Below are positions 3,681-56,111 of a stretch of 64,000 bases of DNA, one piece after another (position 1 is the first letter of the stretch; the number at the start of each line of letters is the position of its first letter). This DNA is from an uncultured Methanosarcinaceae archaeon (GTDB lineage Archaea; Halobacteriota; Methanosarcinia; Methanosarcinales; Methanosarcinaceae), in the NCBI GenBank assembly GCA_963733675.1, contig CAVTET010000007.1, positions 32,001 to 96,000 on the forward strand. The letters are read 5' to 3'. Position numbers and translations under genes: made by a program. The notes under the pieces are model-generated. The model was not told the origin of the DNA. It saw only the letters and a program-made list of their open reading frames with translations, and ran no database searches.

Positions 3681-3992
3681 CTAAGACTGGACTGTGGGAG
3701 TAAAGTGATCTGAGATTGTGCCGGCTGGTATTTCACCCAAGTAGGGGAAGCTGGTTGCTGGAGAAGGACAAGACACAACCCAGGATCCTGTGCCATTAAA
3801 AACATACTGACAAGGGCCTGACCAGTTCCATCCCCCGCCAAGGCTGTCACCCCAGCTTCCTCCTCCGCCCCAAGGTCCACCACGGTACCAACCAGGACGT
3901 GCACTAGCTGACATAGCTGTAAACGATACTATAAAAAGGACTGCAAAAGAAATGGACAGTACCTTTTTCATTTTACTGGATGATTGTTTCAA
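3681..3992 (-). CDS. Secreted Gly/Trp-rich peptide (same signal family)
   Basis: GGAG RBS; signal ending SASA; GGPWGGGGSWG; CQYVFNGTGSWVVSC hairpin motif. Confidence 0.7.
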   Translation of the reverse strand: MKQSSSKMKKVLSISFAVLFIVSFTAMSASARPGWYRGGPWGGGGSWGDSLGGGWNWSGPCQYVFNGTGSWVVSCPSPATSFPYLGEIPAGTISDHFTPTVQS

Positions 3993-4411
3993 TATTTTAT
4001 TACGCTCCTTTCATATTGTTCAACTTAGCACTAAATGCAGATAACACTTTTAGATATATAAATATATATGTATAATTTCTAGTTTATTGTGGATAAGCTT
4101 TTTGTGATATTTTGGTGGCGTTTACACAGGTACATTTTGTGGGTCATCAATACGGATATCTAAAATATACAGAGCTTTCATTGCAAAATCTATGCATCGA
4201 TGAAAATAATGGAAAAATTCTGTTTTGTCTGATGCGATAAAATTATACATAGTCAATCCGAATTTAGAGATCTTTAAGAATATAAAACATCAGACACCTA
4301 ATTGGAGAAAATGACGAGTAGATATAATAGATATTATGCATATTCTCGTTAGCTATAAATTCACTGTTCTACCATTATTAGTGTGGAGATGCTTGGAGGA
4401 CTTAATAGACA

Positions 4412-4720
4412 ATGCCTTCTCAAGAGCTAAAAAATTCGGAATTTTTTATTGAGATATTAAGACAACATCTACCCAAGTTAAGAGAAAAATATAGTGTAAG
4501 CTATCTTGGAATTTTTGGGTCTTACATTCGTGGAGAGCAGACCAAAGATAGTGACCTTGATGTACTAATACAATTTGATAAGAAGCCAGGACTTTTGAAA
4601 TACATTGAATTGGAAAACTATCTCAGCGACCTTTTAGGAGTAAAGGTTGACCTAGTAATGAAAAGTGCACTTAAACCCAATATTGGGAAGCAAATTTTGA
4701 ATGAGGTAAAAGCTCTATGA
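4412..4720 (+). CDS. Minimal nucleotidyltransferase (MNT antitoxin)
   Basis: FGSYIRGEQTKDSDLDVL (GS...DxD) motif, 102 aa. Confidence 0.9.
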   Translation: MPSQELKNSEFFIEILRQHLPKLREKYSVSYLGIFGSYIRGEQTKDSDLDVLIQFDKKPGLLKYIELENYLSDLLGVKVDLVMKSALKPNIGKQILNEVKAL

Positions 4721-4812
4721 AAATAGAGAAAAGAAATCCTGTAGATTTTTTGATGGATATTTTTGATGGATATACTAGACTCGATTGAAAAAATAGAAAA
4801 TTTTGTTGAAGG
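4717..4812 (+). pseudogene. HEPN/DUF86 toxin 5' fragment, frameshifted and truncated by the left TIR
   Basis: ATG overlaps the MNT stop; 'DILDSIEKIENFVEG' reads in a shifted frame after a duplicated GATGGATAT; similarity ends at 4813. Confidence 0.7.
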
Positions 4813-5120
4813 GCTTCAAAGTGCAGTTTTATTGACTCCAGTAGGTCAGTCCATGACTCTTTTACTTGTCTGTTAGCTTTTGTTAAAGTGTGCCGATTTT
4901 TCTGTAAAATCAAAATACCTAAAAGTCATTGGGTAAAAAAGTTTATGCCCGAAGAACAAAATTTAAAACCATAAACAGAAATCCAACTTTGAATTTACAG
5001 TAAATCCACGACACTATCAATTTTTGCCTATGTGCCTGTAAACTCAATTATTCCATAGTTTATAGGAATATTCAAGATTCTACCGATTTATACCCTACTA
5101 AATGCAAAAAAATAGTGAGA
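4813..5120 (+). repeat. Left ~310 bp inverted repeat
   Basis: GCTTCAAAGTGCAGTTTTATTGACTCCA...AATGCAAAAAAATAGT aligns along its length with the reverse complement of 16505-16813. Confidence 0.9.
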
Positions 5121-5386
5121 ACCACATCTATACTAAAGAATCATAATCCTTGGATTAATTTTACGGCTATATGTTATATTTTGTAGTTAATATGTGTGGA
5201 TTTCACCAGGAAACTTTTATAATAAATTATAGATTGATCCTCAGATCCTCTGTTTAATATTTAGGATATGGTTAGACTAATTATATTATGGATATTTTTA
5301 TATAATGAAGACGTGCTATGAGATATAAACTTAACAAATGTGTTCACTAATGGTAGATTATTTTCATAAACACAATTAATATATTC

Positions 5387-6595
5387 TCAAAACATACAAT
5401 CCATCTGCTTAATCAATGTGTATAAGTGATAATTATTTTGTTGTATAACAATTGGTTTATTTTGACATGTTGCACTTAACTCAGCCGCTCTCATTTTGTT
5501 GTTATACACAAAATCTCTTTCTTTATCCACTATATTTTTTTCTTTAGATACGACATCTTTTTCTTGGGGAGAAACAGTACCGTTTAGAATATCTTGATAA
5601 AAACAATGTTCGAGAATCATATATGGACTCCATTTGCGAGCCATACGTTGATACAATTTCAGTCCTAAGAAATAACAACACATGTCTTCTATATTTTCTT
5701 TCATGAGTCTTTTAAATATTTCATCGGATATTGCATTTAACAATTTTTCCGATATTTTTAGGAATTCTGTTGGCACTGCTGCCAATGTTTTCTGAAATAT
5801 TTCAGACGCAATTTTCAGGGATATTTCCCTTATAATCCTTTGTTCCAATTCTTCAGCAGAAACATCTTCCCAAGACATTATTGATATTTCTTCCAATAAT
5901 TTCCGGAATCTGTTTTCTGAAACTTCAACGTTAGAAGAGTATTTTTGAGAATTTGGATCAAAATATAATTTTGATGAATCGTTTGTATATTTATTGTTAC
6001 CAATCGGTTGAATATTGTAGTTCATTGAAATCCTTTTCATAAATTCAGTATAAAGATTTTTAACAAACTCTTTAACCTCTTGTGCCATCTCAAAGCCTTC
6101 ACGATGCTGGTAAATCTCTTCAGCTTTGGCATATAAAGCTCCAATATCAGTTTCGGTTTTCATGCATACATCAAAAAATGAAGTAGAGCTAGATAATTGC
6201 TTGATCAGGGTGCTTTTATTGTCTGGACTTACGTCAAAAAAGAGCTCTTTAATTATTATATTTACTGATTTTTTATATGTTTGCAACTCAATTTCCCTAA
6301 ACTGTTGTTTGATATTTTTTAAGTGTTTTAGTGACTTAATATCCCAATGATTTTTAAAACCACGTTTACTAGAAAATTTTTTAATACAATTCTCATCAAG
6401 TAAAAAGCTTAGATGTTCATCTATACTAGTTCTATCATGTAATCCATGTTTATTTTTCAAAAATGCTCTGATATTTGGCGTAGAAACTTTTGATGAGTTA
6501 TTTAAAATGTATTCCACTATATCTGTTTCAACTTCGCCTTCTTTCAAGCGTTTCCCTACACCCCTAATGTCTGTCTTTTTTATAGATTCTCTCAT
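5387..6595 (-). CDS. Hypothetical protein with N-terminal winged-helix; candidate element repressor
   Basis: 402 aa ORF; wHTH-like N-terminus (IVEYILNN...SIDEHLSFLLDENCIKK...W); divergent from the AbrB-like gene. Confidence 0.6.
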   Translation of the reverse strand: MRESIKKTDIRGVGKRLKEGEVETDIVEYILNNSSKVSTPNIRAFLKNKHGLHDRTSIDEHLSFLLDENCIKKFSSKRGFKNHWDIKSLKHLKNIKQQFREIELQTYKKSVNIIIKELFFDVSPDNKSTLIKQLSSSTSFFDVCMKTETDIGALYAKAEEIYQHREGFEMAQEVKEFVKNLYTEFMKRISMNYNIQPIGNNKYTNDSSKLYFDPNSQKYSSNVEVSENRFRKLLEEISIMSWEDVSAEELEQRIIREISLKIASEIFQKTLAAVPTEFLKISEKLLNAISDEIFKRLMKENIEDMCCYFLGLKLYQRMARKWSPYMILEHCFYQDILNGTVSPQEKDVVSKEKNIVDKERDFVYNNKMRAAELSATCQNKPIVIQQNNYHLYTLIKQMDCMF

Positions 6596-6803
6596 CGTTT
6601 ATGACATATGCTATAAGGTATTTTAAACTTATTATTTGTTATAAATGTGTATAAATATGGTGTTAATAGAAATCATTTTTTAGAAAAATAATAAGATAAG
6701 TATAGGGTCTTTTTCAGAATAAAATCTGTTACTTCTATATAAACCCAGTCGCGCATGATATGTAGGTAGCATAGTCCATTATCGAAATTCAGGGTTAATT
6801 CTA

Positions 6804-6989
6804 GTGAGAATGATCAAAATGATTTCAAATCACAACCAAAGAAAAATCCAAAAGGTCCGTTATACGTACCTGTTACCGATTCCAATAAACCATGTGAGAA
6901 ACATGAAGATTAGAAAAGGAGACACACTAAATGTCGAACTTCAAGCAGATAATAGCCTTAGGATCACACAGGGCCGGAGGCTAGATTGA
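6804..6989 (+). CDS. AbrB/MazE-like small DNA-binding protein
   Basis: RKIQKV..TYLLPIP..HVRNMKIRKGDTLNVEL pattern of swapped-hairpin regulators. Confidence 0.75.
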   Translation: MRMIKMISNHNQRKIQKVRYTYLLPIPINHVRNMKIRKGDTLNVELQADNSLRITQGRRLD

Positions 6990-7619
6990 ATGCCACTTGA
7001 AACCGAAGAATTAACACCGGATAGAAAATTGTTCAATGTTATTGAGAAAGTTGTGATTGTAAAGGGTACGATCCCAAGCGATCCTACAATATGGGAATTT
7101 TACATACAGAATAAAGTTTTGAGAATAGATGCTACCAAATTGGAAAACATGACACAATTTAGGAAGGAGTATCTAAAAGTCTTTGACCATCCTGCTCCCA
7201 AAGTTACACCGGCCAGGTGGATTGCTGTCCTTGAAGCGTTGGCAGATGAAAAAGCAACCCATATACAAGCTCCGGAAGAATCGAGTCATGTATTTATAGC
7301 TAACAGTATTTTTGAAATTGTATGCGATCGTGAAGTCTCAGATGACCCAGATGAAGCATTTTCCGGGTTTGCTCTATATGAACATTTTTTCCAAGATGAT
7401 GAAAAGCCCTATTGTTGTGTGCCTTCAAAAGTTTTATTGTCGCTGGTTGATGGTTCAGGATTTAAAATTCCCCTGAATGATTTGTCTTCAACAATGACAG
7501 AGCTTGGAATGAAAAAAGAAGGGACACCACGCATTAGTTATTGTAATAAACAATTAAGATCCTGGTGTTTTTTTAAAGATGCTGTATTGAGAGAAAAGGG
7601 AGAAAAATTGGATGACTAA
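6990..7619 (+). CDS. Hypothetical replication-module protein
   Basis: 209 aa ORF starting immediately after the AbrB stop, upstream of the iterons and helicase. Confidence 0.7.
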   Translation: MPLETEELTPDRKLFNVIEKVVIVKGTIPSDPTIWEFYIQNKVLRIDATKLENMTQFRKEYLKVFDHPAPKVTPARWIAVLEALADEKATHIQAPEESSHVFIANSIFEIVCDREVSDDPDEAFSGFALYEHFFQDDEKPYCCVPSKVLLSLVDGSGFKIPLNDLSSTMTELGMKKEGTPRISYCNKQLRSWCFFKDAVLREKGEKLDD

Positions 7620-7620
7620 A

Positions 7621-7830
7621 GTAGACACCGAGACTCCTATATTGTATATTTCTCATGAGAAATGCAAAAAATGGTGTCTAGGTGTCTTGTTTATATATAC
7701 AGTTATTGTTTTTGGCAAGACACCACTAGACACCACAATTTATAGCAATGTCTCTCAATATGGATTAAGCAAGACACCACTAGACACCAATACATGGTTT
7801 TCTTACGATTTGATCAAAGGTGGTGTCTAT
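7621..7830. repeat. AGACACC iteron cluster, candidate element origin
   Basis: Eight AGACACC/GGTGTCT copies; 21-bp direct repeat GCAAGACACCACTAGACACCA at 7715 and 7769. Confidence 0.7.
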
Positions 7831-9388
7831 TCTGACTGAAAAAATTAAAATATTTGGTGGTCCAGGGTGTGGTAAAACATCAATTATCAAGGATTTCTAT
7901 CAAAGGTATTTGTTCGATGGATACAAGCCAACTGAGATTACAGTGTTAACCTTCAGAAAAACTGCAGCAGCTGACTTAATCAGTGCCACGATTTCATATG
8001 CTAGAGTGGAAGAAAATGAATTAAAGAAGCATGTTGGAACTATCCATTCAATATGCTATCGATTAATAGGGCATTCTAAACTGATGGAACATTATGATTA
8101 TGCAGCTTTTGTGAAGAGACACAATTACGGAAAATATCTAAAGAACGGCAGTTTCAAAACTAAAATTGATGATATGGAAGAGTCGGTATACTCAGGTGAT
8201 TTGTTTGACCTTTATTCCTGGCTTCACAATACATGTACACCTGTCAACGAATGGAAGAAGTATCCAGGTGTAAATAATATAAAATGTATAAATATAGTTC
8301 CTGAATTTCTAAAAAATTACGGAGAATATAAAAAACAAATCGGTAAAATTGACTTTTCAGATATGCTGCAAATCGTGATTGATAAGCATATACTTCTCGA
8401 TACTCCAATTTTAATGGTGGATGAATTTCAGGATTTTACAGCTCAAATGTATAAGGTATTTGAAATGTGGGTACCAGATTGCGAATCTGTTTTGATTGCA
8501 GCTGATCCAAATCAATCAATCTATGAGTTTTTTGGTGGTTGCCCTGATTATTATTACCATTTTGAAGCAACTGAAATTGTAAGACATGAAACTTTCAGGC
8601 TATCTGAACAGATTAATAATTTTTCTCGTAAGATACTAAACAGTAATGGGATGTCCGCTCCCGAAACTAAGGCAAAAAAAGTGGCTTCCAGAACCATACA
8701 TCGTGTGAGATATGATTGTAAACTTCCTTTCTATGAAAATGAGTTGCACTTGGTACGGTGTAATTATCAGGCTCATGCAGTTGCATTAAGTCTTGCAAAA
8801 GAAGGTAGAGTATTTGGCGGGTTGTGTGGATGGACAGAAGATGAAGTTAATGCAGCAAACGCTATAATTTCAATACGTCAAAATAAAGCAATTTCTTTCG
8901 ATCAGATTAGAGAACTAATTAATTTATTTTCTGCAAAAATGCTATGTATAAGATGTACTAAAGAAGATTTTGTTAGCAGTCTTGAACAAAAATATGCTCC
9001 CCAATTGCATACCGGAACTGGGGTGCTCAACTGTAACATATTGGATATTCTTAACTCAACTGATCCTACAAAAGGAATGACCAGAAACAGCAAGTTGTTC
9101 AGAGTTAAGATAAATGGTATCAAAAACCGATTCAATTTGATAACTCTGCAAGAAGTAAAAAATCGGAATATATTAACAATTCATGGAGCTAAAGGACTGG
9201 AAGCCGAAGCTGTTTTTTTGCATACTGCAATAACTCCAAGAATTCAAAAGGCACTATTGCTACCTGGAAAAGAATCACAAGCGGAAACGAGGGTTTGGTA
9301 TGTTGGAGTTACTAGAGCTAAGAATGTGTTGTATCTAGTTATGGATGCAGGTAAAAATTATACCCTTCCTGGAGTTCCTTCATGCTAA
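7820..9388 (+). CDS. UvrD/Rep superfamily 1 DNA helicase
   Basis: GGPGCGKT Walker A, TFRKTAA, GTIHS, VDEFQD, ADPNQSIY, TIHGAKGLEA, YVGVTRAK. Confidence 0.92.
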   Translation: MVSILTEKIKIFGGPGCGKTSIIKDFYQRYLFDGYKPTEITVLTFRKTAAADLISATISYARVEENELKKHVGTIHSICYRLIGHSKLMEHYDYAAFVKRHNYGKYLKNGSFKTKIDDMEESVYSGDLFDLYSWLHNTCTPVNEWKKYPGVNNIKCINIVPEFLKNYGEYKKQIGKIDFSDMLQIVIDKHILLDTPILMVDEFQDFTAQMYKVFEMWVPDCESVLIAADPNQSIYEFFGGCPDYYYHFEATEIVRHETFRLSEQINNFSRKILNSNGMSAPETKAKKVASRTIHRVRYDCKLPFYENELHLVRCNYQAHAVALSLAKEGRVFGGLCGWTEDEVNAANAIISIRQNKAISFDQIRELINLFSAKMLCIRCTKEDFVSSLEQKYAPQLHTGTGVLNCNILDILNSTDPTKGMTRNSKLFRVKINGIKNRFNLITLQEVKNRNILTIHGAKGLEAEAVFLHTAITPRIQKALLLPGKESQAETRVWYVGVTRAKNVLYLVMDAGKNYTLPGVPSC

Positions 9389-10704
9389 CGAGACAGCAGA
9401 TTAAGGAACATTACAGCACAGCAGAAATAAGAGAGAATATTATTCGAGTTTCTGCAGACTGTGGCAGTTTTAGAGCAGGCAATGGTAATCGCTGCAAGTG
9501 GTATAAATATCAATATGGGAAAAAAGTAAAATGGTGCCTTGCTAACAATGCAGACTATATCAAAATGGCGCTCCGTTTTAGGACATTCTATTGGACTCTT
9601 AATGTTTTTGATTCTGAAATATTCGGTATTGATTACAATACAGTAAAGACGGAAGACAGTCCTGCAATAAGTCGTAAATATACTGTAGGTTACACTTTTG
9701 GAGTAGATATTGATAAGAAACCTGGAACTGACATCCATGATCTGGAAGTAAAAAAGGTAGTAGAAGATATGGCGCAGTATTTTTCAGATAAATTAAGAGA
9801 ATATGTTCCAAATTCGGTTTACTGCTTATATTCAGGTGGTGGAATTTACGTTATGGTACATCACAAGGTATTTGATCAATTCTGCGACCGATTTAAAAAC
9901 GATCCTAAAGAACCATGGGATAAAATGGCTAAGGTACTTGGAGATGCGTTAGACTATCTAATAGGACATCTAAATGATGAGTTCTTCGAGCTTCATCCAG
10001 AACATATCGGAAAAGTGAAAGCGGATCAACTTAATAACTCTCAGAGAATATTTAAAACACTTTTCAGTATTCATAATAAGCTTGATTATGCTGTTGTTCC
10101 CCTAGATCCTAAAAACATAGAGATTAACTTTGAGAATGCTTCAATTCCTTTGAAACCTGAAATAATCAAATTGGGAGATAATTGGTATACAAAATATGAC
10201 GATGGTGGATATCTTTTAACTAGTTTACTACAACCATTTTTTGTGCAATCATACAATAACATCAATAAAACATATCTTGAAGAAGGACAGCACGAATTTT
10301 ACTGTTCACCAATCCCAATAGAAGATATTGAGAAATGGCCCCCATGTATGCGAAATTTATACAATCTTGCGTGGTGTGGTGATGGGCAGACTAGAGCACT
10401 TGCAGCTTTTGCTTCATTTTTAGGGCAAATAGGGATTGAAGAGAATCAAGCATATATGATGTTTAATGAACTTGCAAATAGATGGGGAGCAAGAACAGAA
10501 AATATTTTTTTAAATTATTTTAGGAAAATGAAAGTGCCAACCTGCAAGCGTTTAATTTCAGATGATAATAGGGGTTTTCCTAAAGGCGTATCGATAAAAA
10601 TGCTTGGAGTTTGTAAGCCTGATATACAATGTATGAATGTGCCTTCTCCTTATTATTACACCGACAAAGAAGGAAACAGAAACAGATTGCTCACTCACTA
10701 CTAG
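9382..10704 (+). CDS. Archaeo-eukaryotic primase-like protein with C-terminal PriL-type Fe-S domain
   Basis: GVDID (DxD) and YSGGGIYV AEP-like motifs; C-terminal WPPCM...PTC...C...C resembling PriL-CTD; overlaps the helicase stop. Confidence 0.7.
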   Translation: MLTRQQIKEHYSTAEIRENIIRVSADCGSFRAGNGNRCKWYKYQYGKKVKWCLANNADYIKMALRFRTFYWTLNVFDSEIFGIDYNTVKTEDSPAISRKYTVGYTFGVDIDKKPGTDIHDLEVKKVVEDMAQYFSDKLREYVPNSVYCLYSGGGIYVMVHHKVFDQFCDRFKNDPKEPWDKMAKVLGDALDYLIGHLNDEFFELHPEHIGKVKADQLNNSQRIFKTLFSIHNKLDYAVVPLDPKNIEINFENASIPLKPEIIKLGDNWYTKYDDGGYLLTSLLQPFFVQSYNNINKTYLEEGQHEFYCSPIPIEDIEKWPPCMRNLYNLAWCGDGQTRALAAFASFLGQIGIEENQAYMMFNELANRWGARTENIFLNYFRKMKVPTCKRLISDDNRGFPKGVSIKMLGVCKPDIQCMNVPSPYYYTDKEGNRNRLLTHY

Positions 10705-10905
10705 AAAAACCAATACCAGAAAAAGAGCGATAAAGGGGAAAGCAGAACATAAGTGGATCTTTTAATTTTGTAAAGAGACTATAAAAATGACAAAATGTTA
10801 TCTATTACCATTACCATCATCAACTAATAATAAACTATAAATATTAATAAATCGTATATAATAGCGTAGTTTCTTGAAAATTTACGGCTGGATAGACTGG
10901 GTAAT

Positions 10906-11129
10906 GTGAAAGGTGGTAAAACAAGATTTCAACAGAAATTTACGGAAGATATGTTCCTAAATGCTCTATCATTGACAGTATTAAGTCCACTACAACTATT
11001 ATGAATTTAGTAGGATGCAGCAGATCCGCTGCTAAAACCATGCTTTATAAGCTCGTAAATGAAGGTAAAGTAAATAAAATAGAGATTGAAGGTGAAGGTT
11101 ATGGTTGGCAGAAAGTGAAAGGTGATTAA
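10906..11129 (+). pseudogene. Small winged-HTH protein, frameshifted
   Basis: Shifted frame reads STTTIMNLVGCSRSAAKTMLYKLVNEGKVNKIEIEGEGYGW. Confidence 0.55.
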
Positions 11130-11453
11130 ACTGAGTTGGACAATGAAATTGTTTCTTGTCACAAATTTAATTTATCATTCATCACTCGCGATTCTTATGA
11201 GTACAATAAAGTGTGGCTCGTGCAACTCACGTTAGAAATACCGAATACAAAGAAAATGATGGTAAATGGCAATATTTAAAACGGAAATTGATTGGAGCTA
11301 CGTTTGCAACACATGTTCAAGCTTTTAAGGATATACTTTGGGTTCTGTGCTGATTTGCACGGTTAATGGGAGTTTGACCATGTATTACAAGTCTGTAATA
11401 GGCAGAAAACAAATAAAGGAATGTAAAGAAAAGCAAACCAAGGAGACAAAATT

Positions 11454-12074
11454 ATGAAATGTTGTTTACAAAAATGTGACGCAGCTTGTGGTGAATGTGC
11501 AGACAGAGTCCCTAGGGCAATGTTTATTGTATTTATAATAAAAAATTTAAATTATATTGCTGAAGATATTGGAAGTTTATTGCTTTCTGTTGGGCATTCC
11601 TTTTTTGAAAAAGGTTGTTCAGACCATGAGCTGAGAACTGTCATTAGTGAAAAAATAGACGATCTTGTTTCATCTGGTGCGTGCAAGTTTGGCACAAAAG
11701 AATTGCTCATAGCAAACTATGACATCTTTTACTTGGAAATGAGTCGTTGGAACACACAACCATCTAATCTAGATGGCGGTAATAATAACCTAAAGCATAG
11801 AATATGGCATACAACTTATCGAATTGATACGGACATCCTTAGAATGGAAGAGAGAATCAAATGGCATATCAACGCAATAGAATGCAGTAACAATGTTATA
11901 AATGCAATCGAAGCTTTATTAAAAGCATATCGACCTGACAAATCATGGGATGAAATTATAACCGATCCTTCAAATAGTGAATACATTGGTATTTGTCAAA
12001 ATCTTCACTACTCAATGGGTCTGTATCACGATGAAATTACGAACTTTCTTCTAACAGAATTACAAATTAACTAA
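11454..12074 (+). CDS. Hypothetical protein
   Basis: 206 aa ORF with GGAG RBS and T-rich terminator. Confidence 0.65.
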   Translation: MKCCLQKCDAACGECADRVPRAMFIVFIIKNLNYIAEDIGSLLLSVGHSFFEKGCSDHELRTVISEKIDDLVSSGACKFGTKELLIANYDIFYLEMSRWNTQPSNLDGGNNNLKHRIWHTTYRIDTDILRMEERIKWHINAIECSNNVINAIEALLKAYRPDKSWDEIITDPSNSEYIGICQNLHYSMGLYHDEITNFLLTELQIN

Positions 12075-13312
12075 TTTTTTCTTGATGTACATCTATTCTA
12101 CTCAAATAAGGCTTCAATCGCTTTACAAATGGTAATTTGTTTATTGCAGAGTAGTAGTGGGACAGAATTTTGCTTTTTTTGAAATCCCACAAAAAAGGCC
12201 CTTAACTTCGACTAGAAATCAATAAAGTAACCTAGGGAGAATAAAAGCGAAACTATCGATATTTCAAAAAATCCACTAACAATGAAGGATTAATTTTGTA
12301 GTGAATTACGAAAATACGGTAGCTATTGAATACCAATAACATATTGCCATATTAGGCTGGTAAAGTGGTACTGGAAGTTAATTGATCCGGCCTGACTTTG
12401 ACAGTAAAGACCGAATAAGCAAAAATAAATGACATTTAACAATATCGATCTTGTTTTACTTTACTTAATTAACTAAGGTGATCTGGATGATCTTGAATAT
12501 CAAAAAGGTGATCTTGTGAGCTGCGGGCGAAGGGGATGCCTACAGCTCGATCTAATGCCTACTTGATTATATGGGTTATCTACTAATTATAATTAAATCT
12601 ACTTAATTATATATTTATATGAAAATATGTCCTAACTTAAACTAATTAGTATTAACATCACCTGTCCTAATCACGTGAATTATAAAATAGGGAAAGCCTT
12701 TTCATGCCCATCAATAACTGATTTCATCTAAGCCCCTCGAACCGGCTTATAATATATGAAAGGTAGAATAGATTCTACCCTACTCAAAAAATGCTTTAAA
12801 TCGTCCTAGAATCGATCTTCTTCAATTTTATTTAAGCAGTTTAGGCGACCAGGCTGATCTATAATACAAAAAAAGTTGATCTTGTAAGCTGCAGGGGTGG
12901 TTACCTGCAGCCCGGTAGAGAATCTGTTCTAAGGTTTGAGAGCCTATAAAATATAACTACATTTAAGTATACATACATTTTTCGCATATATTCTATATAA
13001 TGATAATTTAACTAAATAGTATTAGAAATATGTGGAATTATATCCCAAAATCGAAGCAAATGTCTTACTAAACTTAAATTATATAATTTCAATAATATAA
13101 AAATATATGGAAAAATATCTTGAAGGTACCTAGCGTGCAGAAGCATTCAAATTATGGGGTATTAGATTGGTCAAAAAGCGACTTAACCTGAGCTCACTAG
13201 TGAGACTTTTATAATAAGTTTGATGATTACCATTACCTTTTATAAAAAATGGCCCAGAACGCCTGAGAATGGCTCATCGTTGATCTGACGTAATTGGTTT
13301 AAGTAATGTGAT

Positions 13313-13438
13313 TTAAGACCATTTCACTAAGAGAAACAGAGTAAATATTCCTGCAAATATACCCACAAATACAACGCCAATCGTGACTTTAACTATAAAA
13401 TCTACTGATTGCTTCATCTTAATTTTGTCATCAAGCAT
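13313..13438 (-). CDS. 41-aa single-TM microprotein (copy 1)
   Basis: MLDDKIKMKQSVDFIVKVTIGVVFVGIFAGIFTLFLLVKWS; same-length copy at 54725-54850. Confidence 0.55.
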   Translation of the reverse strand: MLDDKIKMKQSVDFIVKVTIGVVFVGIFAGIFTLFLLVKWS

Positions 13439-13504
13439 GTAAATAATAACCACTTCCTGGTCAAAAGTCATCAATTACTTCGTTTTTTATTGATTTAAAT
13501 GATC

Positions 13505-13556
13505 AGGTTGATCTTGTGAGCTGCAGATGAAGAAACGCACAAGTCTGCAGCTCGAT
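13505..13556. other. Conserved GCTGCAG hairpin motif (one of 9 copies)
   Basis: GATCTTGT-GAGCTGCAGA-loop-TCTGCAGCTC; other copies near 12505, 12870, 14490, 29905, 30235, 36070, 37668, 54915. Confidence 0.7.
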
Positions 13557-13916
13557 AGTAGGTATTGTTGCATGAAAGCACTGACACAGTTGAGTTATAA
13601 ATAGATTTTATTGGTTATATATTGTTAAGAATATATTTTCCTAACTTAAACTAAGTAATACCACAATCATGTAGTCTTTATCTTTGGGCTGCTTAATGTC
13701 TTTGTATCTGCATGAATAGCAAACTTTTATGGGGATATAAACGTGAATATTTTGGATCTCTGGGTAAAAACGTTTGGTTCCGCCAAATAAGCCAAACTCT
13801 CTAAATAAATTTAAAAATACATCAATACTTATAGGTTGCAATTTATCTATATTGTACGGGTAATTTCTAAATATAAACCTGCATTAAATATAAAGAAGTA
13901 TATGGAGATATATAGT

Positions 13917-14054
13917 ATGATTCATTCAGATTCAAAAGTATTACCTATAATTAATAACGCTAACAATGCAGAAAAGATGGCTAAACCGGTGGCAGCTGAA
14001 TCGATCGTGAAAGCAGACTGTATAAAAACAGACTCTTCTACAAAGGCTGTTTAG
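13917..14054 (+). CDS. 45-aa peptide (copy 1)
   Basis: Same length and frame as 30848-30985; followed by T-tract. Confidence 0.45.
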   Translation: MIHSDSKVLPIINNANNAEKMAKPVAAESIVKADCIKTDSSTKAV

Positions 14055-15010
14055 ATATAACATTAATCACTTTTTCTTTTGATAACCCTTTTTTTCGCAT
14101 ACTAGTTTAATACTTCATTGACATTTTGATCTTCACACTCTTACATAATAAATACGATATCTAATTATTTAGGAATAGCAGTTGTCATTTTTATTCCAGT
14201 ATTTACTTGATAAACCTGTGATGTTTAGAGAGTTTGATCTTTTTTAGATATATTCTCATTTCATGACTAAAACTAAGAACATTATGTAGTCATTATTTCA
14301 AAAAGTATACCAGTTGGGAATCTTCCTGATTATCAATAATTGACTGCATCTCAACCCCAACAGCATGTTTACAATTCCTGTAATAGGAGTTGAGTATCTA
14401 ATTCCTAAAAATGCCTAGATCGACCAATAATCGATCTTTGTATGCTTTATTTAAATGGTGTAGGTGAAACAGGGGCAAATCTGAAATGTCAAAAAAGTTG
14501 ATCTTGTGAACTGCAGGATGCCGGTTCCTACAGCCTATGAGTTGAGTGTAATTGAAGGTTTGAGAGAGTTTTGTAGTTATAATTATATTAGATTAGATAT
14601 ATATAGTTTTTGTATATATGGCAAATAGTATTCATGTGGACTAAATCGTACTAGATATATGTAAAACGTCATCTCTAAATCAAAACAACCACTTCCGGCA
14701 ACTTGGTTTATATATATTAAAAGTTATAAATATATATAGAAAATATCGTGAAGTCACTTACCGTGCAGTCAAATTTGGAACATGGGGAATTAAATTGGTC
14801 GAAAAGCGACTTAACCTGAGCTCACTAGTAAGACTTTTATTGTGAGTATTATGAACAACATTACCTTTGTAAAAAGACGTCTTAAAACGGCTGAGAATGG
14901 CTCACGTTGATCTAATGCGTATAAGCCCCGCTTCTATGCAAAACAAAACGAACTAAATATTAAAATACAAGACTAGCTGATATTTATTGTAAAGTAAAAA
15001 CGGTGATCAT

Positions 15011-15433
15011 ATGGTTCGTCCTTCAAAACTGACTCCTGATATACAAAAAAAAATCGGTGAAAATATTGCACTAGGGTTAACTTATAGATTGGCTGCCGAA
15101 TCGGCTGGTGTAACTTACAAAACGTTCAACGAATGGATGAACAGGGGCAAGACAGAGAAATCTGGAAAATATTATCTATTTTATAAGTACATTCAAAAGC
15201 GGAATGCTGATGCCGCAAAAGTCCTCCTGGAACGTTTAAACAAAGCAGCAGATGCTGGAAATTGTCAAGTTTGTATGTGGGTGCTCGAACGCCGTTTTAG
15301 TGACGACTTTGGAAGGCGGATCTATAGGAAAACAAATGTTATCTCAGAGAACATAAATGAAAATGTTGAACTAACGATCGAGGAAGGAGATCAAATAAGA
15401 AAACAAATTTTAGCGAAGTTTGATCGGAGTTAG
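15011..15433 (+). CDS. Terminase small subunit-like HTH protein (intact copy)
   Basis: MxRPSKLT...AAESAGVTYKTFNEW HTH and C-terminal W.LERRF..DFGR pattern recalled from phage TerS-like proteins. Confidence 0.65.
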   Translation: MVRPSKLTPDIQKKIGENIALGLTYRLAAESAGVTYKTFNEWMNRGKTEKSGKYYLFYKYIQKRNADAAKVLLERLNKAADAGNCQVCMWVLERRFSDDFGRRIYRKTNVISENINENVELTIEEGDQIRKQILAKFDRS

Positions 15434-15542
15434 AAAAATCACCAGTTATTAGCTGATTAAGATTTTCTTATCTAAAACTGAGATGTTTTTAACAGAGAGT
15501 TATTCACTACTAATATAATCCTATGATCAATTGTAGCTGGAC

Positions 15543-16022
15543 TTACCAAAATCGCCACCATGGTTTACTTTTTTCTGCGGTCTCCGGAAGCAGCTTAATG
15601 TTTAGCCTGCTATTTTCTTGAATTACCGACTGCAAAGAAAACGCCTGTTTGTCTATCTGTTGATCCTTAATTGCTATTTGATTATCTTTTATCGCGATTT
15701 GCCCTTTCAAAAATTCCACTTGCGCCAATGCGTCAGAAAGTCTCGATTTCAATTCAATGGCGCCGTTGGTGTCATGGTTGTCACCATCGGCGTAATCGTT
15801 GGCGTCAACGTTGGCGTTACGGGCGTCTGTGCTTTTGTACGTGGTGCCACGGTTGGTGCCAGTGGTGCCGCTTGGCGCAATGGCGCCTTCCTTTATTTCT
15901 ACGAGAAGTTCTAAAGCTTCGTTTATAGCTTGCGCCGCACTGGCGTAATGCTGGCGTATCCTGGTGTCTAACTCTTTTGTTATTCTTGCTGACACACGTA
16001 TCCGGTCTTCTACTGGCGCCAT
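15543..16022 (-). CDS. RHH-like DNA-binding / coiled-coil protein ending KPWWRFW
   Basis: N-terminal RVSARI strand plus helices, heptad KDNQI/KDQQI coiled coil, aromatic amphipathic tail; paralogs at 28534 and 56112. Confidence 0.75.
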   Translation of the reverse strand: MAPVEDRIRVSARITKELDTRIRQHYASAAQAINEALELLVEIKEGAIAPSGTTGTNRGTTYKSTDARNANVDANDYADGDNHDTNGAIELKSRLSDALAQVEFLKGQIAIKDNQIAIKDQQIDKQAFSLQSVIQENSRLNIKLLPETAEKSKPWWRFW

Positions 16023-16504
16023 AGTTGGATATATTTGGCGCCAGTTTTAAAAAGGTATCGTTTGTCATTAGTAAAGTAGCTTAGAAGATCGATATTGATC
16101 CACACGAGATATTTTTTATTTTCATAATGTATGCAATCATGTATTCAAACTGTAACAAATTATTTTTACAATATCAAAAGACTCTCTTAATCATATAAAT
16201 CAACGCTTGCCAAATTTAACAAACGCTGTTTTGGCGGTGGTGAGAGAATATAAAAAATGTAAATTGTCAGGATTATCTAAATAAAGATATAAATAAAAAA
16301 TATTTACTAGTTAACGATTGTTGGTCTTTAGTGCATTATTGTACAAAAAACTCATTGTAAGTGCGTATGAAATATAGGATTTTTTTTGATCATATAATAC
16401 AACACAGTATGTTTTAACAATAGATTATTATAAAAATAATTTTCTTGAATTCACTTAACTTAAAATCGATATTCAGTGGATGTATGACAGTTAACCTATG
16501 TTTT

Positions 16505-16813
16505 TCTTACTATTTTTTTGCATTTACTGGGGGGTATAAATCGGTAGAATCTTGAATATTCCTGTAAACTATGGAATGATTGAGATTATAGACACATAGG
16601 TAAAAATTGGTAGTGTCGCGAATTTGCTGTAAATTCAAGGTTGGATTTCTGTTTACGGTTTTAAATTTTGTTCTTCGCACATAAACTTTTCTACCCAATG
16701 ACTTTTAGGTATTTCGATTTTACAGAAAAATCGGCACGCTTTAACAAAGTTAACAGGCAAGTAAAAGAGTCATGGACTAACCTATTGGAGTCAATAAAAC
16801 TGCACTTTGAAGC
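16505..16813 (-). repeat. Right ~310 bp inverted repeat
   Basis: Ends ...GGAGTCAATAAAACTGCACTTTGAAGC; reverse complement of 4813-5120. Confidence 0.9.
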
Positions 16814-17072
16814 TTTTTAAGCTTTTAAATAGACTCATATAGCTACCTGTATTGAAAGTCGTTTCCTCGCTTTTTTAACAACTAACTCAGAAGGAGGGAT
16901 AAGATCATCAGAGAAAATAGGTATCTATAACCAAGAGTAAAAATTTAAAATAACTACTTACATAATAGTATATTGTAGCATATACCAAATTGATCAAAAA
17001 AAGTAAGAAATATCGGCGGATTTGTACGATGAACCGAGAAATAAATATGAACGCAGAAAAGGAGATTGAGTA

Positions 17073-17562
17073 ATGGCAACTTTAACAGTTCTGAAGTTTG
17101 ACACCGCTGATGGTGCAGAAAATGAACTTGAAGTAATTGAAGATTTAAGTAAGCAACAAATGATAAAACTACACGATGCAGCTATAGTCACTTGGCCTGA
17201 GGGGAAAAATAAACCAAAAACAAAGCATTTGATCAATTTAACTCGCATAGGTGCACTGAGTAGCGCTTTTTGGGGGTTGTTATTTGGGATTCTCTTCTTT
17301 ATTCCTTTGGTTGGTATAGCCGCTGGGGCTGCGCTAGGTGCGGTAGTGGGTTCAATGAAACATGTGGGGATCGAATGAAGATTTCATAAAATCTATCCGC
17401 AGCAAGGTGACTGAAGGAACTTCAGCTCTCTTTCTTATGACTAGCGATGCCGTGGAAGATAGGGTAATAGAAGCTATGAAAAAATCCAAGTTTGAAATCA
17501 TTGCCACCAACATGTCAAAGGAAGAAGAAGAAAAGATGCGTGCAACCTTTGCAGAAGAATAA
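17073..17562 (+). pseudogene. DUF1269-family membrane protein, frameshifted near 17370
   Basis: MATLTVLKF...DAAIVTW...FWGLLFG plus second frame EDFIKSIRSKVTEGTSALFL...TNMSKEEE. Confidence 0.8.
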
Positions 17563-18635: not shown

Positions 18636-19086
18636 TCAGCCACATATACTTTTTTTCCGTCTGCAGTTGCTGCAAATGCCAAATATGTTAAAATTCCATC
18701 CTCCAGCAGAAAAATCTACTTCATTTGATATCCGATCCACAATTTTAGAAATAAGGGGATATGTGCAGTCATTGATGCTTTTGCACTGGAGGCAAACCAA
18801 ATGCGTGTGTGGCTTCATATTGGGATCAAATCTGGCCTGATCTTTATCTAAATTCAATTTCTGGATCAAACCTGCCTCTTTCAAAATTTAGAACAGTTTT
18901 ATAAATTGTTGCAAGACTGACTGTTGGATAAACCTTCTTTACTTCACTATAAATTCCCTGAGCCGTTGGGTGGGCATGAGTGTGGAGAACAAATTGACCG
19001 ATCACTATTATCTGGGGCGTGGCCTTGTATCCTTTTTCGTGGAGAGCTTTGATTATGGATGAGTATGAGTCCTGAAGGCTATTCAT
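18636..19086 (-). pseudogene. Fur/PerR-family regulator, frameshifted
   Basis: HPTA..IY...VSLATIYKT in one frame; HTHLVCLQC...GICSNC in another; divergent from katG. Confidence 0.85.
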
Positions 19087-19523: not shown

Positions 19524-21737
<2,214 letters not shown>

Positions 21738-22794: not shown

Positions 22795-23195
22795 CAAAAT
22801 TAAATGTCAAAAAACAAATTTTCGATATTAATAGATCCACTATAGACTGAAGTGGCACCCCCTCTATTGACATTTAAACATATAATTTTGTGCTGAAAAA
22901 AATCCAAATGGAAAGTTTTGATTTATAAAAAGTAAGAAGTCTCGTGTCATGTTTATGATTTACATATATAAATAATTTATTATTTTATCTAACATAATTG
23001 ATTTTTTACCTTCAATATTTTAATGTCAATTGGGGGGTGTATGCCAGCATTTCACTACTTAGCCGATATGGAATTAAATGTCAATCTGGCAAAAAATAGC
23101 TTTAATTTCTTAACATTTGGATTAAACGTCATAAATGTCTATAGTTGTCTCACAAAAATAGACATAATCTTACATACCTCAAATGACATTTAATT
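22795..23195. promoter_or_regulatory. Candidate cdc6-adjacent replication origin
   Basis: Inverted G-string boxes at 22855-22878 and 23018-23039 flanking an AT-rich ~140 bp stretch; further AAATGTCA copies at about 22801, 23075, 23132, 23183. Confidence 0.6.
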
Positions 23196-24453
23196 GATCA
23201 TGCAATCTGAAGACATAGTGACAGATCTTGATGATTTCTTTGGAGAAAACAATAATACAATAGTAAAAGATGCTCAAGCATTATCTTTAGATTACGTTCC
23301 TGAACAAATAGTTGGGCGGAGAGCCGAGATAACAGAACTTGTAAAAATCTTTAAACCAATAGAGTTTAAAGGATATCCTTCTAATGCGACAATATTTGGT
23401 AATTCTGGATATGGAAAGACTGTAGTTGCCAAGTTTGTTCTCCAAAAGCTTATGGAGCGTGTAGAGAAGAAAAAATTATTGAATCACACACTAAAATGGG
23501 TCTATATTCAGTGCAAAAAACATAAAACGGAGATAAAAGTCCTGTTTGAAACAATAACTCAATTAGATTCTAAAACAAAAGTGCCTAAAACTGGCTTGTC
23601 TCCAGGTGAATATTACGATGCTTTATGGGATCTAATCAAAGAGCAGAATATCTCTCTTATTGTAGTTCTCGATGAAATTGATAAATTGAAAAGTGGTGAT
23701 CTTTTATATAATTTAAGTCGTGCTGGTGAATCTCATCAACTTCCAGAACGTCATTTTCTAACTACGATAGGCATTTCAAACGATTTTGAATTTGGTAAGT
23801 ATCTTGACACTAGAACAAAATCATCAATGAATTTCAAAGATGTGGTTTTCTCGGCATATAATGCAGAACAGATAAAAATGATTCTTTTTGACCGTGTTAA
23901 AATTGCATTTAATCCGGGGGCAGTCTCCAACGAGACAATTGAGTTATGTGCTGCAATTTCAGCTAAGGCTCACGGAGATGCTCGCAAAGCTATCGATCTT
24001 TTAAGGGCAGCTGCTATCTATGCTGAAGAGAATGGATATGAGCAGGTACTTCCAGAACATATTGACAAGGCTTTTGAAGAACTGGATGGAGATAGAATGA
24101 TAAAATTTATTCCAAAACTTGCTTTGCATGATAAACTTGTCCTATTATCAATTGTGAAAACAACTAACTATAATAAACAAATTACAAATGTTAGACAAGT
24201 TACTGCAATGTATAATAAACTTTGTGATGAGATTCAAGAAAAAAGGAAAGGGAGAACAACTGTTTCAACTAAGATAGGAGAATTACTCACGATGAGCTAT
24301 ATTAAAGTTCTTTCTGTTAGAAAGGGACGTGGAGAAGGAGGACGAGAGGTAGAATTAAATGTTTCTTCGCGACGTGTTTTAGAAGATGTGTTGTATGAGG
24401 ATTATAACCTGGGAGACTTAAGAGATTTTAATCCAACGATGTTTTCCAATTAA
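23194..24453 (+). CDS. cdc6: Orc1/Cdc6-family replication initiator (divergent, probably MGE-borne)
   Basis: LSLDYVPEQIVGR, GNSGYGKT, VLDEID, GDARKAIDLL, C-terminal wHTH with GRGEGG wing. Confidence 0.92.
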   Translation: MIMQSEDIVTDLDDFFGENNNTIVKDAQALSLDYVPEQIVGRRAEITELVKIFKPIEFKGYPSNATIFGNSGYGKTVVAKFVLQKLMERVEKKKLLNHTLKWVYIQCKKHKTEIKVLFETITQLDSKTKVPKTGLSPGEYYDALWDLIKEQNISLIVVLDEIDKLKSGDLLYNLSRAGESHQLPERHFLTTIGISNDFEFGKYLDTRTKSSMNFKDVVFSAYNAEQIKMILFDRVKIAFNPGAVSNETIELCAAISAKAHGDARKAIDLLRAAAIYAEENGYEQVLPEHIDKAFEELDGDRMIKFIPKLALHDKLVLLSIVKTTNYNKQITNVRQVTAMYNKLCDEIQEKRKGRTTVSTKIGELLTMSYIKVLSVRKGRGEGGREVELNVSSRRVLEDVLYEDYNLGDLRDFNPTMFSN

Positions 24454-26619: not shown

Positions 26620-26817
26620 CAATAATAAATATTAATCATCTATCAATTAGCTCGTTTTTATTAGTAAATCCATATTTCCATAAAGCATCAATGAAATGCG
26701 GAACAAAAAAACCGAAAAATGACTATACTTTTATTTTTGAAACAAAACCAACTAAATAATAGAGGACTATCCATGCTTGCATAAATTATTTATTTAATAT
26801 TGGTAAACTTCTCCCTG

Positions 26818-26880
26818 AAAGATGATGAAGTCCACCTAGATCTTTAAATCTAAACCGCTTATGCTAATGACTTCTACACA
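26818..26880 (+). ncRNA. Fluoride riboswitch (crcB motif)
   Basis: GATGAAGTCCACC...AAACCGC...GCTAATGACTTCTAC; GAAGTC/GACTTC pseudoknot; directly upstream of crcB. Confidence 0.85.
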
Positions 26881-26898
26881 ATCATCGAGGCTTTTGAC

Positions 26899-27297
26899 TT
26901 GTACATACTTCTATTAGTAGGCATAGGCGGTTTCATAGGCTCTATCTTGAGATATACTTTAAGTGGATGGGTACAGAGTAATCTTGTTAATTTCCCGGTT
27001 GGTACTTTGGCTGTAAATGTTAGTGGCAGCTTCCTTTTGGGGTTAATAATGTACCTTTCTGAGTATCAAGAACTCTTTGGCGAAGAAACCAGGATATTTC
27101 TGACAATTGGATTAATCGGTGGCTATACAACATTATCAACATTTAGTTATGAGTCATTCAGATTATTAGACGATTCAAAACTAACACTAATGGCAATAAA
27201 TTTGATGGCCACAGTATTATTTTCCATGTTTGCAGTGTATTTAGGGAAAATTGTGGCTTTGAACTTTTACACGTATCTGCTAAGGGGAATTAGATGA
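26899..27297 (+). CDS. crcB: Fluoride channel CrcB/FluC
   Basis: GGFIGSILRY, PVGTLAVN, GGYTTLSTFSYE. Confidence 0.95.
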   Translation: MYILLLVGIGGFIGSILRYTLSGWVQSNLVNFPVGTLAVNVSGSFLLGLIMYLSEYQELFGEETRIFLTIGLIGGYTTLSTFSYESFRLLDDSKLTLMAINLMATVLFSMFAVYLGKIVALNFYTYLLRGIR

Positions 27298-29070: not shown

Positions 29071-29428
29071 TAAATAGTTTGATACTTTTGATTTTCGTTA
29101 CCCAAATTAAACTTTTCTAGAATTTGTGCCCTAATGCCATCTGCATAATTGATTGCTATATCAACAATCACATTCTGATTCTCTGAAACCAGATTTGTTT
29201 TCTTAGTTCCAAAAGAACTTTTGCAGCCTCAGCATTACATTTTTGAATGTATTTATAGAACTGATAATACTTTCCTGATATCTCTGTCTTCCCCTTGTTC
29301 ATCCAGTCATTGAATGTCTTATAGATTATGCCGGCTGATTCAGCAGCAAGAGCATATGTCAATCCAAGAGACACACCATCGCCAATTCATTTGGTTACAT
29401 CAGACGTCATTTTGGTTGGTCTAGACAT
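29071..29428 (-). pseudogene. TerS-like gene, frameshifted and deleted
   Basis: MSRPTKMT...LGLTYALAAESAGIIYKTFNDW homologous to 15011-15433. Confidence 0.75.
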
Positions 29429-54192: not shown

Positions 54193-54465
54193 ATGGCCAG
54201 ACCTACAAAATTAACGGATGTAGTACAACAAGAGATCGGTGATGGCGTGTCCCCTGGATTGACGTACTCTCTCGCTGCTTCGTCAGCAGGTGTGACTTAC
54301 CAGACGTTCAATCAATGGATGAAATTGGGAAGAGATTCGACTTCAAGAAGGCACTTTGAATTTTATAAACATATCAAACAACGGAATGCTGAAGGAGCTC
54401 TAAGAATATTACAGAAACTGAACGATGCTGCTAGAGCTGGAAATTGACAGGTTTGCTTGTGGATT
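54193..54465 (+). pseudogene. TerS-like gene, nonsense codon and truncation
   Basis: MARPTKLT...AGVTYQTFNQW; TGA at 54445 followed by QVCLWI. Confidence 0.75.
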
Positions 54466-54724
54466 ATATAATAACAATGTTATATTATCAAGCATAACGT
54501 TTAATTGTAATATCTATATATGAATACTTATACTATATAATTAGAAGAGAACATTAGATTAAAAATACAATTATACGTTTTATAATATTTAAGTGAACAA
54601 AAAAATCTTCAAACCTTGTCTTATTAAATAGAAAATTTATGGGAAAATTGTTTGGCTTATTTGGCTTCCCTATTGCATGAATACCTGCTCTAAAAACTAT
54701 AGTAATTATTTTAAATAATGCGAT

Positions 54725-56037: not shown

Positions 56038-56111
56038 TAATTACGGACACAGATGTAATTAGAAATAAAATTCTAGATAAGTTATCGATAGTTGGAAAAT
56101 TGTAGTCTGAC

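Follow-up and report, generated by a model that had tools for sequence, protein, structure and literature searches.

A 12-kb stretch between inverted repeats in a Methanosarcinaceae genome is probably a partly decayed copy of a small integrative element

Integrated elements that use a tyrosine recombinase and sit at tRNA genes have been described from archaea (PMC8371274 and PMC6563490, in the accessible parts of these accounts). We compared these and other described systems with a stretch of about 12 kb from an uncultured Methanosarcinaceae archaeon, which lies between two long inverted repeats at positions 4813 to 16813 of the 64,000 nt analysed here (the window, positions 32001-96000 of contig C7 of a 3.92-Mb, 15-contig assembly with 35.7% G+C that is 92% complete). 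It is probable that this stretch is a partly decayed, integrase-less copy from a family of small (~10-16 kb), capsid-less integrative elements of Methanosarcinales. The family resembles the described elements in size, in the lack of virion genes among those we found and in carrying its own primase/helicase or polymerase, and in relatives an integrase lies beside attachment (att) repeats, in one case at a tRNA-Gln gene; the window copy differs in having neither integrase nor att site. On the best reading, the stretch thus belongs to a known kind, the archaeal integrative plasmid-like elements that use a tyrosine integrase, and lies in a genome rich in MITEs (miniature transposable elements with inverted repeats). 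The family's 402-aa gene, 74-aa cassette, coiled-coil gene and terminase-small-subunit-like (TerS-like) gene match no described family in the libraries searched. We found no description of these small integrative elements with exchangeable replication modules in the literature, where supplementary catalogues of MITEs or proviruses (e.g. PMC11602168, PMC13573593) could list their sequences.

Two other known systems share features with the locus. Phage-inducible chromosomal islands (PICIs) and other phage satellites are alike in size, in the divergent gene pair at the left, in having their own replication genes and a small terminase-like helix-turn-helix (HTH) gene, and in having no capsid genes. 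The window contains replication genes of this kind, an archaeo-eukaryotic primase (AEP) and a superfamily 1 (SF1) helicase, both intact. It differs from PICIs in its archaeal host, in the weakly supported TerS identity, in the 39 loci at which the TerS-like gene occurs, in that no helper virus is known and in having no integrase or att sites. Casposons, known for example from Methanosarcina mazei (PMC4779613 and PMC10359463, as far as the accessible parts of these sources go), are self-replicating mobile DNA of the same host group with inverted-repeat flanks. The window differs from them in having no Cas1 and no family B DNA polymerase, and its repeats are copies of a dispersed repeat and are not flanked by a target-site duplication.

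One line of evidence for an integrative element comes from relatives of the replication genes. On the plus strand between the inverted repeats stand two genes for proteins of unknown function with 209 and 75 residues (o209 and o75; 6990-7839), of which the first opens the replication module, followed by an intact SF1 (UvrD/Rep-like) helicase gene (7820-9388; PF00580, 7.6e-26; PF13361; phrog_1967, 1.1e-54) and the intact AEP primase gene (9382-10704). We fetched loci with homologous genes from other Methanosarcinales genomes (L codes below denote loci or contigs, and G codes genomes). The helicase lies beside the primase in 14 of 32 loci and o209 is collinear as well in 10, as it is in the window. 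Within the DNA examined, a tyrosine integrase was found in 9 of the 32 loci, the strong cases being L072, L075, L077, L079 and L081. In L077, from a Methanolobus chromosome, 55-nt direct repeats (1477-1531 and 17107-17161) stand 15,630 nt apart and overlap a tRNA-Gln gene, and bound a 15.6-kb element whose integrase lies 43 nt inwards of the repeat. In L079, a 10.9-kb contig, exact 55-nt direct repeats (67-121 and 10881-10935) stand 10,814 nt apart beside the integrase. L077 and L079 thus combine att sites in the form of direct repeats with a left-end integrase that has a C-terminal zinc ribbon, a combination not seen in the window, where the integrase is lost or absent; in L072, L075 and L081 the integrase was found alone. 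None of the seven o209-helicase-primase loci examined has bracketing inverted repeats of at least 35 nt, so that the homologous primase-helicase modules examined elsewhere lack ends of the window's type. The L077 element also encodes an ATPase of the Schlafen/AlbA_2 type and an endonuclease that contains a lamin-tail domain. The direct repeats of L079 are att sites or possibly reflect a circular contig.

A second line of evidence comes from the source genome itself (G000, with contigs C1-C13 named here). Sister copies in G000 have the 402-aa gene with its small divergent partner, the cassette and the TerS-like/coiled-coil gene pair in the same order as the window, and carry a different replication module, consisting of a prim-pol or DnaG-like primase, a DUF3987 protein, a 3'-5' exonuclease and PolA. 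At five of seven paralogous loci, the immediate left neighbour of the 400-aa gene is a zinc-ribbon tyrosine integrase, at the place where the window has the left arm of its inverted repeat. On contig C8, the tyrosine integrase occupies 329-1465 and the 399-aa homologue 1646-2845. This C8-type element of ~10 kb is present in at least 3-4 copies with 96-99.7% identity and breaks the assembly. Copies were seen on contigs C8, C9 and C10 and at the ends of C1, C3, C4, C5 and C6 (L030, L032, L035-L037), with the gene order integrase, 399-aa gene, prim-pol, DUF3987, exonuclease, PolA, 74-aa regulator and TerS-like gene. The first ~280 nt of the element are a repeat with ~15 copies, and the region over which the copies are highly alike stops at the TerS-like gene or within it (C5 position 2200-2409). 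Inspection of three sister copies in G000 for att-like direct repeats gave only 12-13-nt or chance-level matches, or none, and no bracketing inverted repeats of at least 40 nt were found at the sister loci L028, L030 and L033.

The inverted repeats of the window are real and long. Their arms, at 4813-5127 on the plus strand and 16498-16813 on the minus strand, align over 317 nt with 90.9% identity, in agreement with the original prediction, which had placed them at about 4813-5120 and 16505-16813 and had taken them for the ends of the element. This second claim is not borne out: the arms are two members of a dispersed composite repeat and not element termini. Each is a mosaic of three modules, which on the left are module 0 (~4813-4871), MITE A (4887-5016) and module B (~5020-5127); the right arm has the same three in reverse orientation, with MITE A at 16611-16740. 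A genome-wide BLAST search recovered the full-length composite only at these two places in the 3.92-Mb assembly, and partial matches only, with 69-86% identity, to the sub-modules (arm positions 1-59, 75-203 and 208-315) at 38 further places. In a comparison set of 58 other species of the genus (genomes up to 5.8 Mb), the three modules occur separately in 34 genomes (E ≤ 1e-10), and two-module combinations were found in the host intergenic DNA of relatives. The objection, raised from the outset, that the 310-nt sequence might be an independent high-copy MITE is therefore correct for the sub-modules, which are dispersed across the genus, and incorrect for the 317-nt composite, which is not high-copy. 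We also compared the 38 places with other landmarks of the element family (38 other TerS-like loci, nine integrase loci and three helicase/primase loci), and found none of them within 1 kb of a landmark and only one within 2 kb.

Module A of each arm is like prokaryotic MITEs: it is a short non-coding unit of ~130 nt, multi-copy and genus-wide, with inverted ends of ~26 nt as defined by an alignment of 25 copies. The arms as a whole differ from MITEs in being three-module composites. The fold (hairpin) z-score of MITE A is -3.6 and its flanks are AT-rich; from the look of its ends, we presume a likeness to IS630. The inverted ends have the sequence GGCAGTGTGCCGATTTTTCTGTAAAA..., and many species of the genus have copies, with 71-86% identity. 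Module B is longer in its dispersed copies, which extend past the inner edges of both arms, on the left-arm side to ~5290.

The outer edge of the right arm was also crossed by homology. Single alignments with 82-85% identity run from 16607 to 16953 in three related genomes (G064, G019 and G055; loci L054, L055 and L057), in which the sequence outside the arm (16814-16953) is contiguous with it. Because these alignments pass 16813 unbroken in three related species, the outer edge of the right arm is not a junction there. The three copies represent one shared locus with no element protein nearby, and beyond the match the relatives' sequence continues into DNA homologous to contig C3 of G000 at ~20.0-20.7 kb. 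In another genome, G066, the two inner arm modules lie beside an open reading frame (ORF) judged aRF1-like by eye. Over 235 shared columns, the left and right arms are 90.6% identical, and either arm is 90.2% identical to the G066 copy; these near-equal values imply that the arms are not a special pair. Inverted pairs are moreover common in this repeat-laden genome, which holds 136 of at least 200 nt within 30 kb, 40 of them below 400 nt, and a new class of element defined by long terminal inverted repeats is not upheld. A pair on C5 of similar length (317 nt, 92.7% identity, 9.8 kb apart) was rejected as a further case, consisting of paralogous genes whose sequence is unrelated to the arms.

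The left arm adjoins a broken gene. An MNT-type nucleotidyltransferase gene (4412-4720, plus strand; PF01909, E 1.9e-17), which is host-side left flank and lies outside the element, is followed by the stump of its partner, a HEPN (DUF86-like) gene (4717-4812, plus strand) that retains about the first 29 of ~120 codons and is cut at 4812. A 13-nt tandem duplication at 4747-4773 shifts the frame of the stump. Homology to the MNT-HEPN loci of related genomes (80-84%) stops at window position 4812-4816 in all eight loci, confirming the earlier claim that the left arm cuts the HEPN gene. It had also been noted correctly that no target-site duplication is visible at either junction and that the HEPN remainder is absent on the right; we found it nowhere in the assembly, the sole other match being a 49% paralogue on C6. 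A contig from the metagenome run X3, possibly the source sample, spans 3973-4970 with no difference, and the HEPN junction is therefore not an assembly artefact. Contigs from two further metagenome runs, X7 and X10, agree with the window as far as 4812, except that they lack the 13-nt duplication, and differ from there on, with HEPN alleles that look unbroken, and one X7 contig covers 16531-17090, that is, across the outer edge of the right arm. Among the 15 joints listed from metagenome contigs, none joins 4812 to 16814 and none switches strand between the arms; these contigs are short and end at repeats, and give no verdict on excision or inversion. The stretches that X7 and X10 leave uncovered (9.4-10.5 kb and 11.5-12.1 kb) and the small RNA shares were given no weight. 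The sequence occurs in peat and soil habitats. The left and right flanks were never found together in the 58 other genomes of the genus, where the neighbourhood is not syntenic, and no empty site could be defined in relatives.

In intact members of the family, a tyrosine integrase with a C-terminal zinc ribbon takes the left end and is followed by the 400-aa gene, which points leftward, and by an operon that runs rightward and includes a replication module of exchangeable type (in the window o209, SF1 helicase and AEP primase); a small regulator gene, the TerS-like HTH gene and the convergent coiled-coil gene make up the right end. Such members would integrate and excise by means of the tyrosine integrase and replicate by their own primase-helicase or polymerase module. 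The direct-repeat att sites at two loci, one of them in a tRNA-Gln gene, show that the o209-helicase-primase elements of other Methanosarcinales insert by site-specific recombination into att sites. In the window copy, we infer a deletion that took, besides the integrase and the left att site, three quarters of the HEPN gene from its 3' side. This deletion would have joined HEPN codon ~29 to the middle of a composite repeat (module 0, MITE A and module B), of which a second, inverted copy would lie in the right flank. The cut through the left copy would then be the only reason why the apparent terminal inverted repeats end at 4813 and 16813. The window copy should be immobile on its own, unless a sister integrase acts on it. 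This proposal retains from the earlier interpretation an integrated mobile DNA with its own helicase-primase and without an integrase, and abandons both the inverted repeats as termini and the notion of an integrase-free kind of element.

Several observations weigh against this proposal. All three modules run collinearly in the two arms, which are the sole full-length copies in the assembly, and the outer edge of the left arm falls within 4 nt of the HEPN breakpoint, as a true element end would. No integrase remnant, att site or empty site was found for the deletion, and the right flank at 16814-16942 has no match in G000. The lack of synteny at this locus in relatives bars a reconstruction of the original arrangement, and since the helicase, primase, o209 and 402-aa genes are intact, the word decayed applies to only part of the element. 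On contig C2 (L029), a diverged helicase-primase(-TerS) remnant is bracketed by an 84-nt inverted repeat with 77% identity (2905-2988 and 12549-12632); this repeat has no sequence relation to the window arms, is a member of a different dispersed family and has a host PAP2 gene within its bracket. Finally, an assembly that is 92% complete, in 15 contigs, breaks in these very elements.

The TerS-like gene at the right of the stretch bears on whether the family depends on viruses. It encodes a 140-aa HTH protein (15011-15433, plus strand) that matches phrog_4102, 'terminase small subunit', at 6.1e-22. The gene is part of a conserved ~0.9-kb unit (14700-15620, plus strand) in which the HTH gene stands between the conserved ~300 nt upstream of it and the 3' end of the coiled-coil gene, with bounds taken from a conservation profile over 20 copies. 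The coiled-coil protein (15543-16022, minus strand; 159 aa, ending in ...PWWRFW) is encoded convergently to the TerS-like gene at 11 loci. Both genes had been recognized in the original prediction, which regarded the TerS-like gene as the element's own; it is instead one of 39 dispersed loci in G000, with 44-85% aa identity and stops in many copies (a separate count gave 45 matched pieces, 21 of them at E ≤ 1e-40). Three further copies lie in the window itself, at 29207-29428, 54193-54564 and 55681-56084. The expansion is limited to six of 59 genomes of the genus, namely G000 and five sister species; elsewhere in the order the gene is scarcely present, 2 of 60 other genomes giving matches; in a large protein collection it forms 669 clusters, some labelled 'transposase'. 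This clade-restricted spread of a terminase-small-subunit-like gene to dozens of loci is of modest value in itself.

The identity of the TerS-like protein was examined by several means. Its best Pfam match is HTH_29 (E 0.013), obtained in 7 of 35 members; a profile search of PDB sequences returned only designed helical proteins and ferritin; and its structure model is poor (pLDDT 56.7). Only two relatives were found in IMG/VR, and the neighbours of these are a DnaC-like helicase loader on one side and SSB on the other, with no large terminase adjoining; one of them, the phrog_4102 member on contig L100, occupies 5989-6423. The phrog_4102 label may thus not describe the function. The family profile showed no relation to the small HTH protein of L079 or to the candidate TerS of the viral contig L038, and searches of G000, at 92% completeness, found neither Terminase_6N nor an HK97 capsid family.

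Other readings of the locus have to be weighed against a partly decayed integrative element. One takes the stretch to be a mobile element of a new kind, or a linear replicon in integrated form, that ends in ~315-nt inverted repeats and moves without integrase, transposase or Cas1. This would agree with an inverted repeat that is real, long and unique as a full-length pair, with the coincidence of the left outer edge and the HEPN breakpoint, and with intact replication genes and no integrase between the arms. We nevertheless regard it as very unlikely: no target duplication is visible, the rest of HEPN was found neither on the right nor anywhere else in the assembly, right-arm homology passes the outer edge in three relatives, and the arms, built of a MITE and other independently occurring dispersed modules, show no greater similarity to one another than to a copy from another species, while family members have tyrosine integrases and, in other Methanosarcinales, direct-repeat att sites, and have no such arms. 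Even less credence can be given to a composite transposon in which two inverted copies of MITE A, with an IS630-like transposase acting in trans, would move the 11.7 kb between them. MITE A does have inverted ends of ~26 nt and many copies across the genus, and MITE-rich Methanosarcina genomes are on record, that of Methanosarcina spelaei being among the archaeal genomes richest in MITEs (PMC11602168, in its accessible part). However, the repeat extends ~74 nt outside and ~110 nt inside MITE A in both arms, so that the duplicated unit is larger than the MITE, and neither a target duplication, a second 12-kb unit nor a matching transposase was identified.

Two further readings invoke viruses. 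The IMG/VR contig L038 has o209, o75, helicase and primase in window order, with 69.7% DNA identity over 3431 nt (55% aa identity for o209 and 74% for the helicase), and runs on into a large-terminase fragment, which implies gene exchange with head-tailed viruses. The family, the window copy included, might accordingly be a capsid-less satellite of head-tailed Methanosarcina viruses, whose TerS-like protein would redirect the packaging of a helper. The size of ~10 kb, the integrase in sisters, the divergent gene pair, the own replication genes, the apparent lack of capsid and large-terminase genes and the phrog_4102 match all fit such a satellite, as does the replication module shared with L038. 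Set against this, the TerS call is a single PHROG label that the Pfam, PDB and structure-model results do not reinforce, the two IMG/VR relatives carry the gene in a replication region, the protein has no homology to the L038 candidate TerS, and neither a Terminase_6N or HK97 capsid family nor a relative of the L038 late genes was found in G000, which is 92% complete; moreover, 39 loci per genome, many of them broken, are unlike any known satellite gene. With one PHROG label, viral relatives in replication regions and no Terminase_6N or HK97 capsid family found in G000, the satellite idea stays a minority reading and is rather improbable. Slightly less probable is its fuller form, in which the window copy would be a defective member of an undescribed methanogen satellite family, with an integrase and swappable replication modules, whose right end hijacks the packaging of head-tailed viruses, and in which the ~40 TerS-like loci per genome in the six-species clade would record repeated integration and decay, or the unit would be a chromosomal target. 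If this were true, the family would be an early case of virus satellites in methanogens. It is unlikely, more so than either form of the satellite idea, that a head-tailed provirus, after loss of the integrase and the late genes from terminase to tail, left the stretch as a stump of early genes. L038 would support such a stump, having terminase genes after the same run of o209, o75, helicase and primase, as would IMG/VR contigs of 37-61 kb that carry primase homologues with 48-50% identity. But the left and right modules are common to the capsid-less sisters of ~10 kb, which run from integrase to TerS-like gene with no room for virion genes, and none of the L038 genes that follow the primase has a relative in G000.

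As to the individual genes, the primase (440 aa, plus strand, with a C-terminal four-cysteine domain) had no match in Pfam, PHROGs or NCBIfam and no sequence-level match in the PDB. Its AlphaFold model has a pLDDT of 90, and the listed Foldseek matches (E ≤ 5.4e-3) are all AEP primase-polymerases, the best being 6sa0 (E 4.6e-5). Acidic DxD and sGxGxH-type motifs are hallmarks of AEPs. In 42 homologues, D109 and D111 (DxD) and S151-G154, H160 and H161 (SGGG..HH) are invariant, and the four C-terminal cysteines, which lie in a helical domain, are also invariant among homologues. Judged by the model and these motifs, the product of 9382-10704 is a member of the archaeo-eukaryotic primase superfamily, which bears out the earlier call of a primase. 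It belongs to a family of about 100 homologues (106 in our count, all unnamed) that has no Pfam model and is common to these elements and to contigs of head-tailed viruses. The primase is like the fused PriS-PriL-like primases of archaeal plasmids, such as PolpTN2 of pTN2 (PMC3973330, accessible in part), and the AEP families associated with mobile genetic elements (PMC5862659, likewise in part) in having an AEP catalytic fold that bears the motifs DxD and SGGG..H and, after it, a helical domain at the C terminus, with four invariant cysteines. It differs from the AEPs of archaeal plasmids and mobile elements in matching nothing in Pfam, NCBIfam or the PDB at the sequence level.

At the left, the hallmark gene of the element family (5387-6595, minus strand) encodes a 402-aa protein of unknown family, with paralogues in G000 at 26-36% identity by tblastn and no match in Pfam, PHROGs or NCBIfam; its best scores in the ESM Atlas, 0.87-0.88, are under the level that counts, and are the only lead for the winged-helix assignment made in the original prediction. 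Divergent from it lies a gene for a 61-aa protein (6804-6989, plus strand), whose paralogues adjoin 402-aa homologues. The original prediction had called this an AbrB regulator. The window protein itself has no match, and a paralogue with 55% identity matches MazE_antitoxin (PF04014) at E 2.9e-4, below the cut-off; an AbrB/MazE-fold regulator is a possible assignment. The SF1 helicase was called correctly. As had been claimed, Pfam, PHROG and NCBIfam scans of the ORFs between the arms yielded no family of integrases, transposases, Cas1 or capsid proteins; tblastn likewise gave no integrase remnant there (best E 1.5).

Downstream of the primase is a 360-nt cassette (10778-11137, plus strand), composed of a promoter-like TATA stretch and the gene of a small 74-aa regulator (10903-11130), which in the window is frameshifted by a 1-nt deletion. 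Described earlier as a winged-helix (wHTH) remnant, it is indeed a broken small gene; the wHTH assignment is sub-threshold (PF22168, 23.4 bits against a cut-off of 27). Seven other copies of the cassette, with 83-89% identity, lie on contigs C1 (twice), C5, C6, C8, C11 and C13. In six collinear elements (C8, C5, C6, C11 and the two on C1), the cassette is 1.23-1.36 kb upstream of the TerS-like gene, and on C13 it is 2.0 kb upstream. The other genes of these elements are unrelated or reach only ~36% aa identity, and the 83-89% identity of the cassette suggests recent exchange or strong constraint. An orphan ORF of 206 aa (11454-12074, plus strand) has no paralogue and no family. It is followed by ~2 kb of repeat debris (12440-14520), a mostly non-coding patchwork of dispersed repeats. 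Here a motif of 17-26 nt recurs at 12510, 12878, 13510 and 14500, with spacings of 368, 632 and 990 nt. Tandem Repeats Finder and short-repeat scans found no iteron cluster such as the original prediction had listed; the motif is part of partial copies of a segment that lies ~505 nt upstream of TerS-like genes elsewhere, three extra copies of which fall within 12440-14520.

The first 19 kb of the window form a variable island with toxin-antitoxin pairs, split genes and dispersed repeats, and the homologues of the element proteins bear the names Methanosarcina, Methanolobus and Methanothrix; we take the host to be probably a Methanosarcina. A tRNA scan of the window gave no tRNA able to serve as an att site. 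An Rfam scan of the window gave a single match, a fluoride riboswitch (RF01734, 36.3 bits) at 26812-26883, with crcB (26899-27297) and a DUF190 gene shortly downstream. The DNA is identified as archaeal by an Orc1/Cdc6 gene at 23194-24453. Right of the stretch, a DUF1269 gene (17073-17562) and a FUR-family gene (18636-19086) are each represented by two ORFs, probably through frameshifts, and the DUF1269 cassette is multi-copy, with 81-91% nucleotide identity on contigs C1, C4, C6 and C12. A catalase-peroxidase gene (19527-21737; PF00141, 736 aa) lies within an island of 54-57% G+C in a genome of 36% G+C, which suggests that it was acquired horizontally. Of the 136 inverted pairs in G000, 58 consist of repeats of 800-900 nt, presumably copies of an IS240-type insertion sequence. 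Genes for IS240-type DDE transposases are found at 35092-35736 and 48076-48780 and genome-wide. To the left of the MNT gene, two genes (2550-2942 and 3681-3992) encode small secreted Gly/Trp-rich proteins, in which a signal-peptide-like start is followed by GGGGWGG repeats, and these genes belong to paralogous DNA dispersed in G000 and its relatives.

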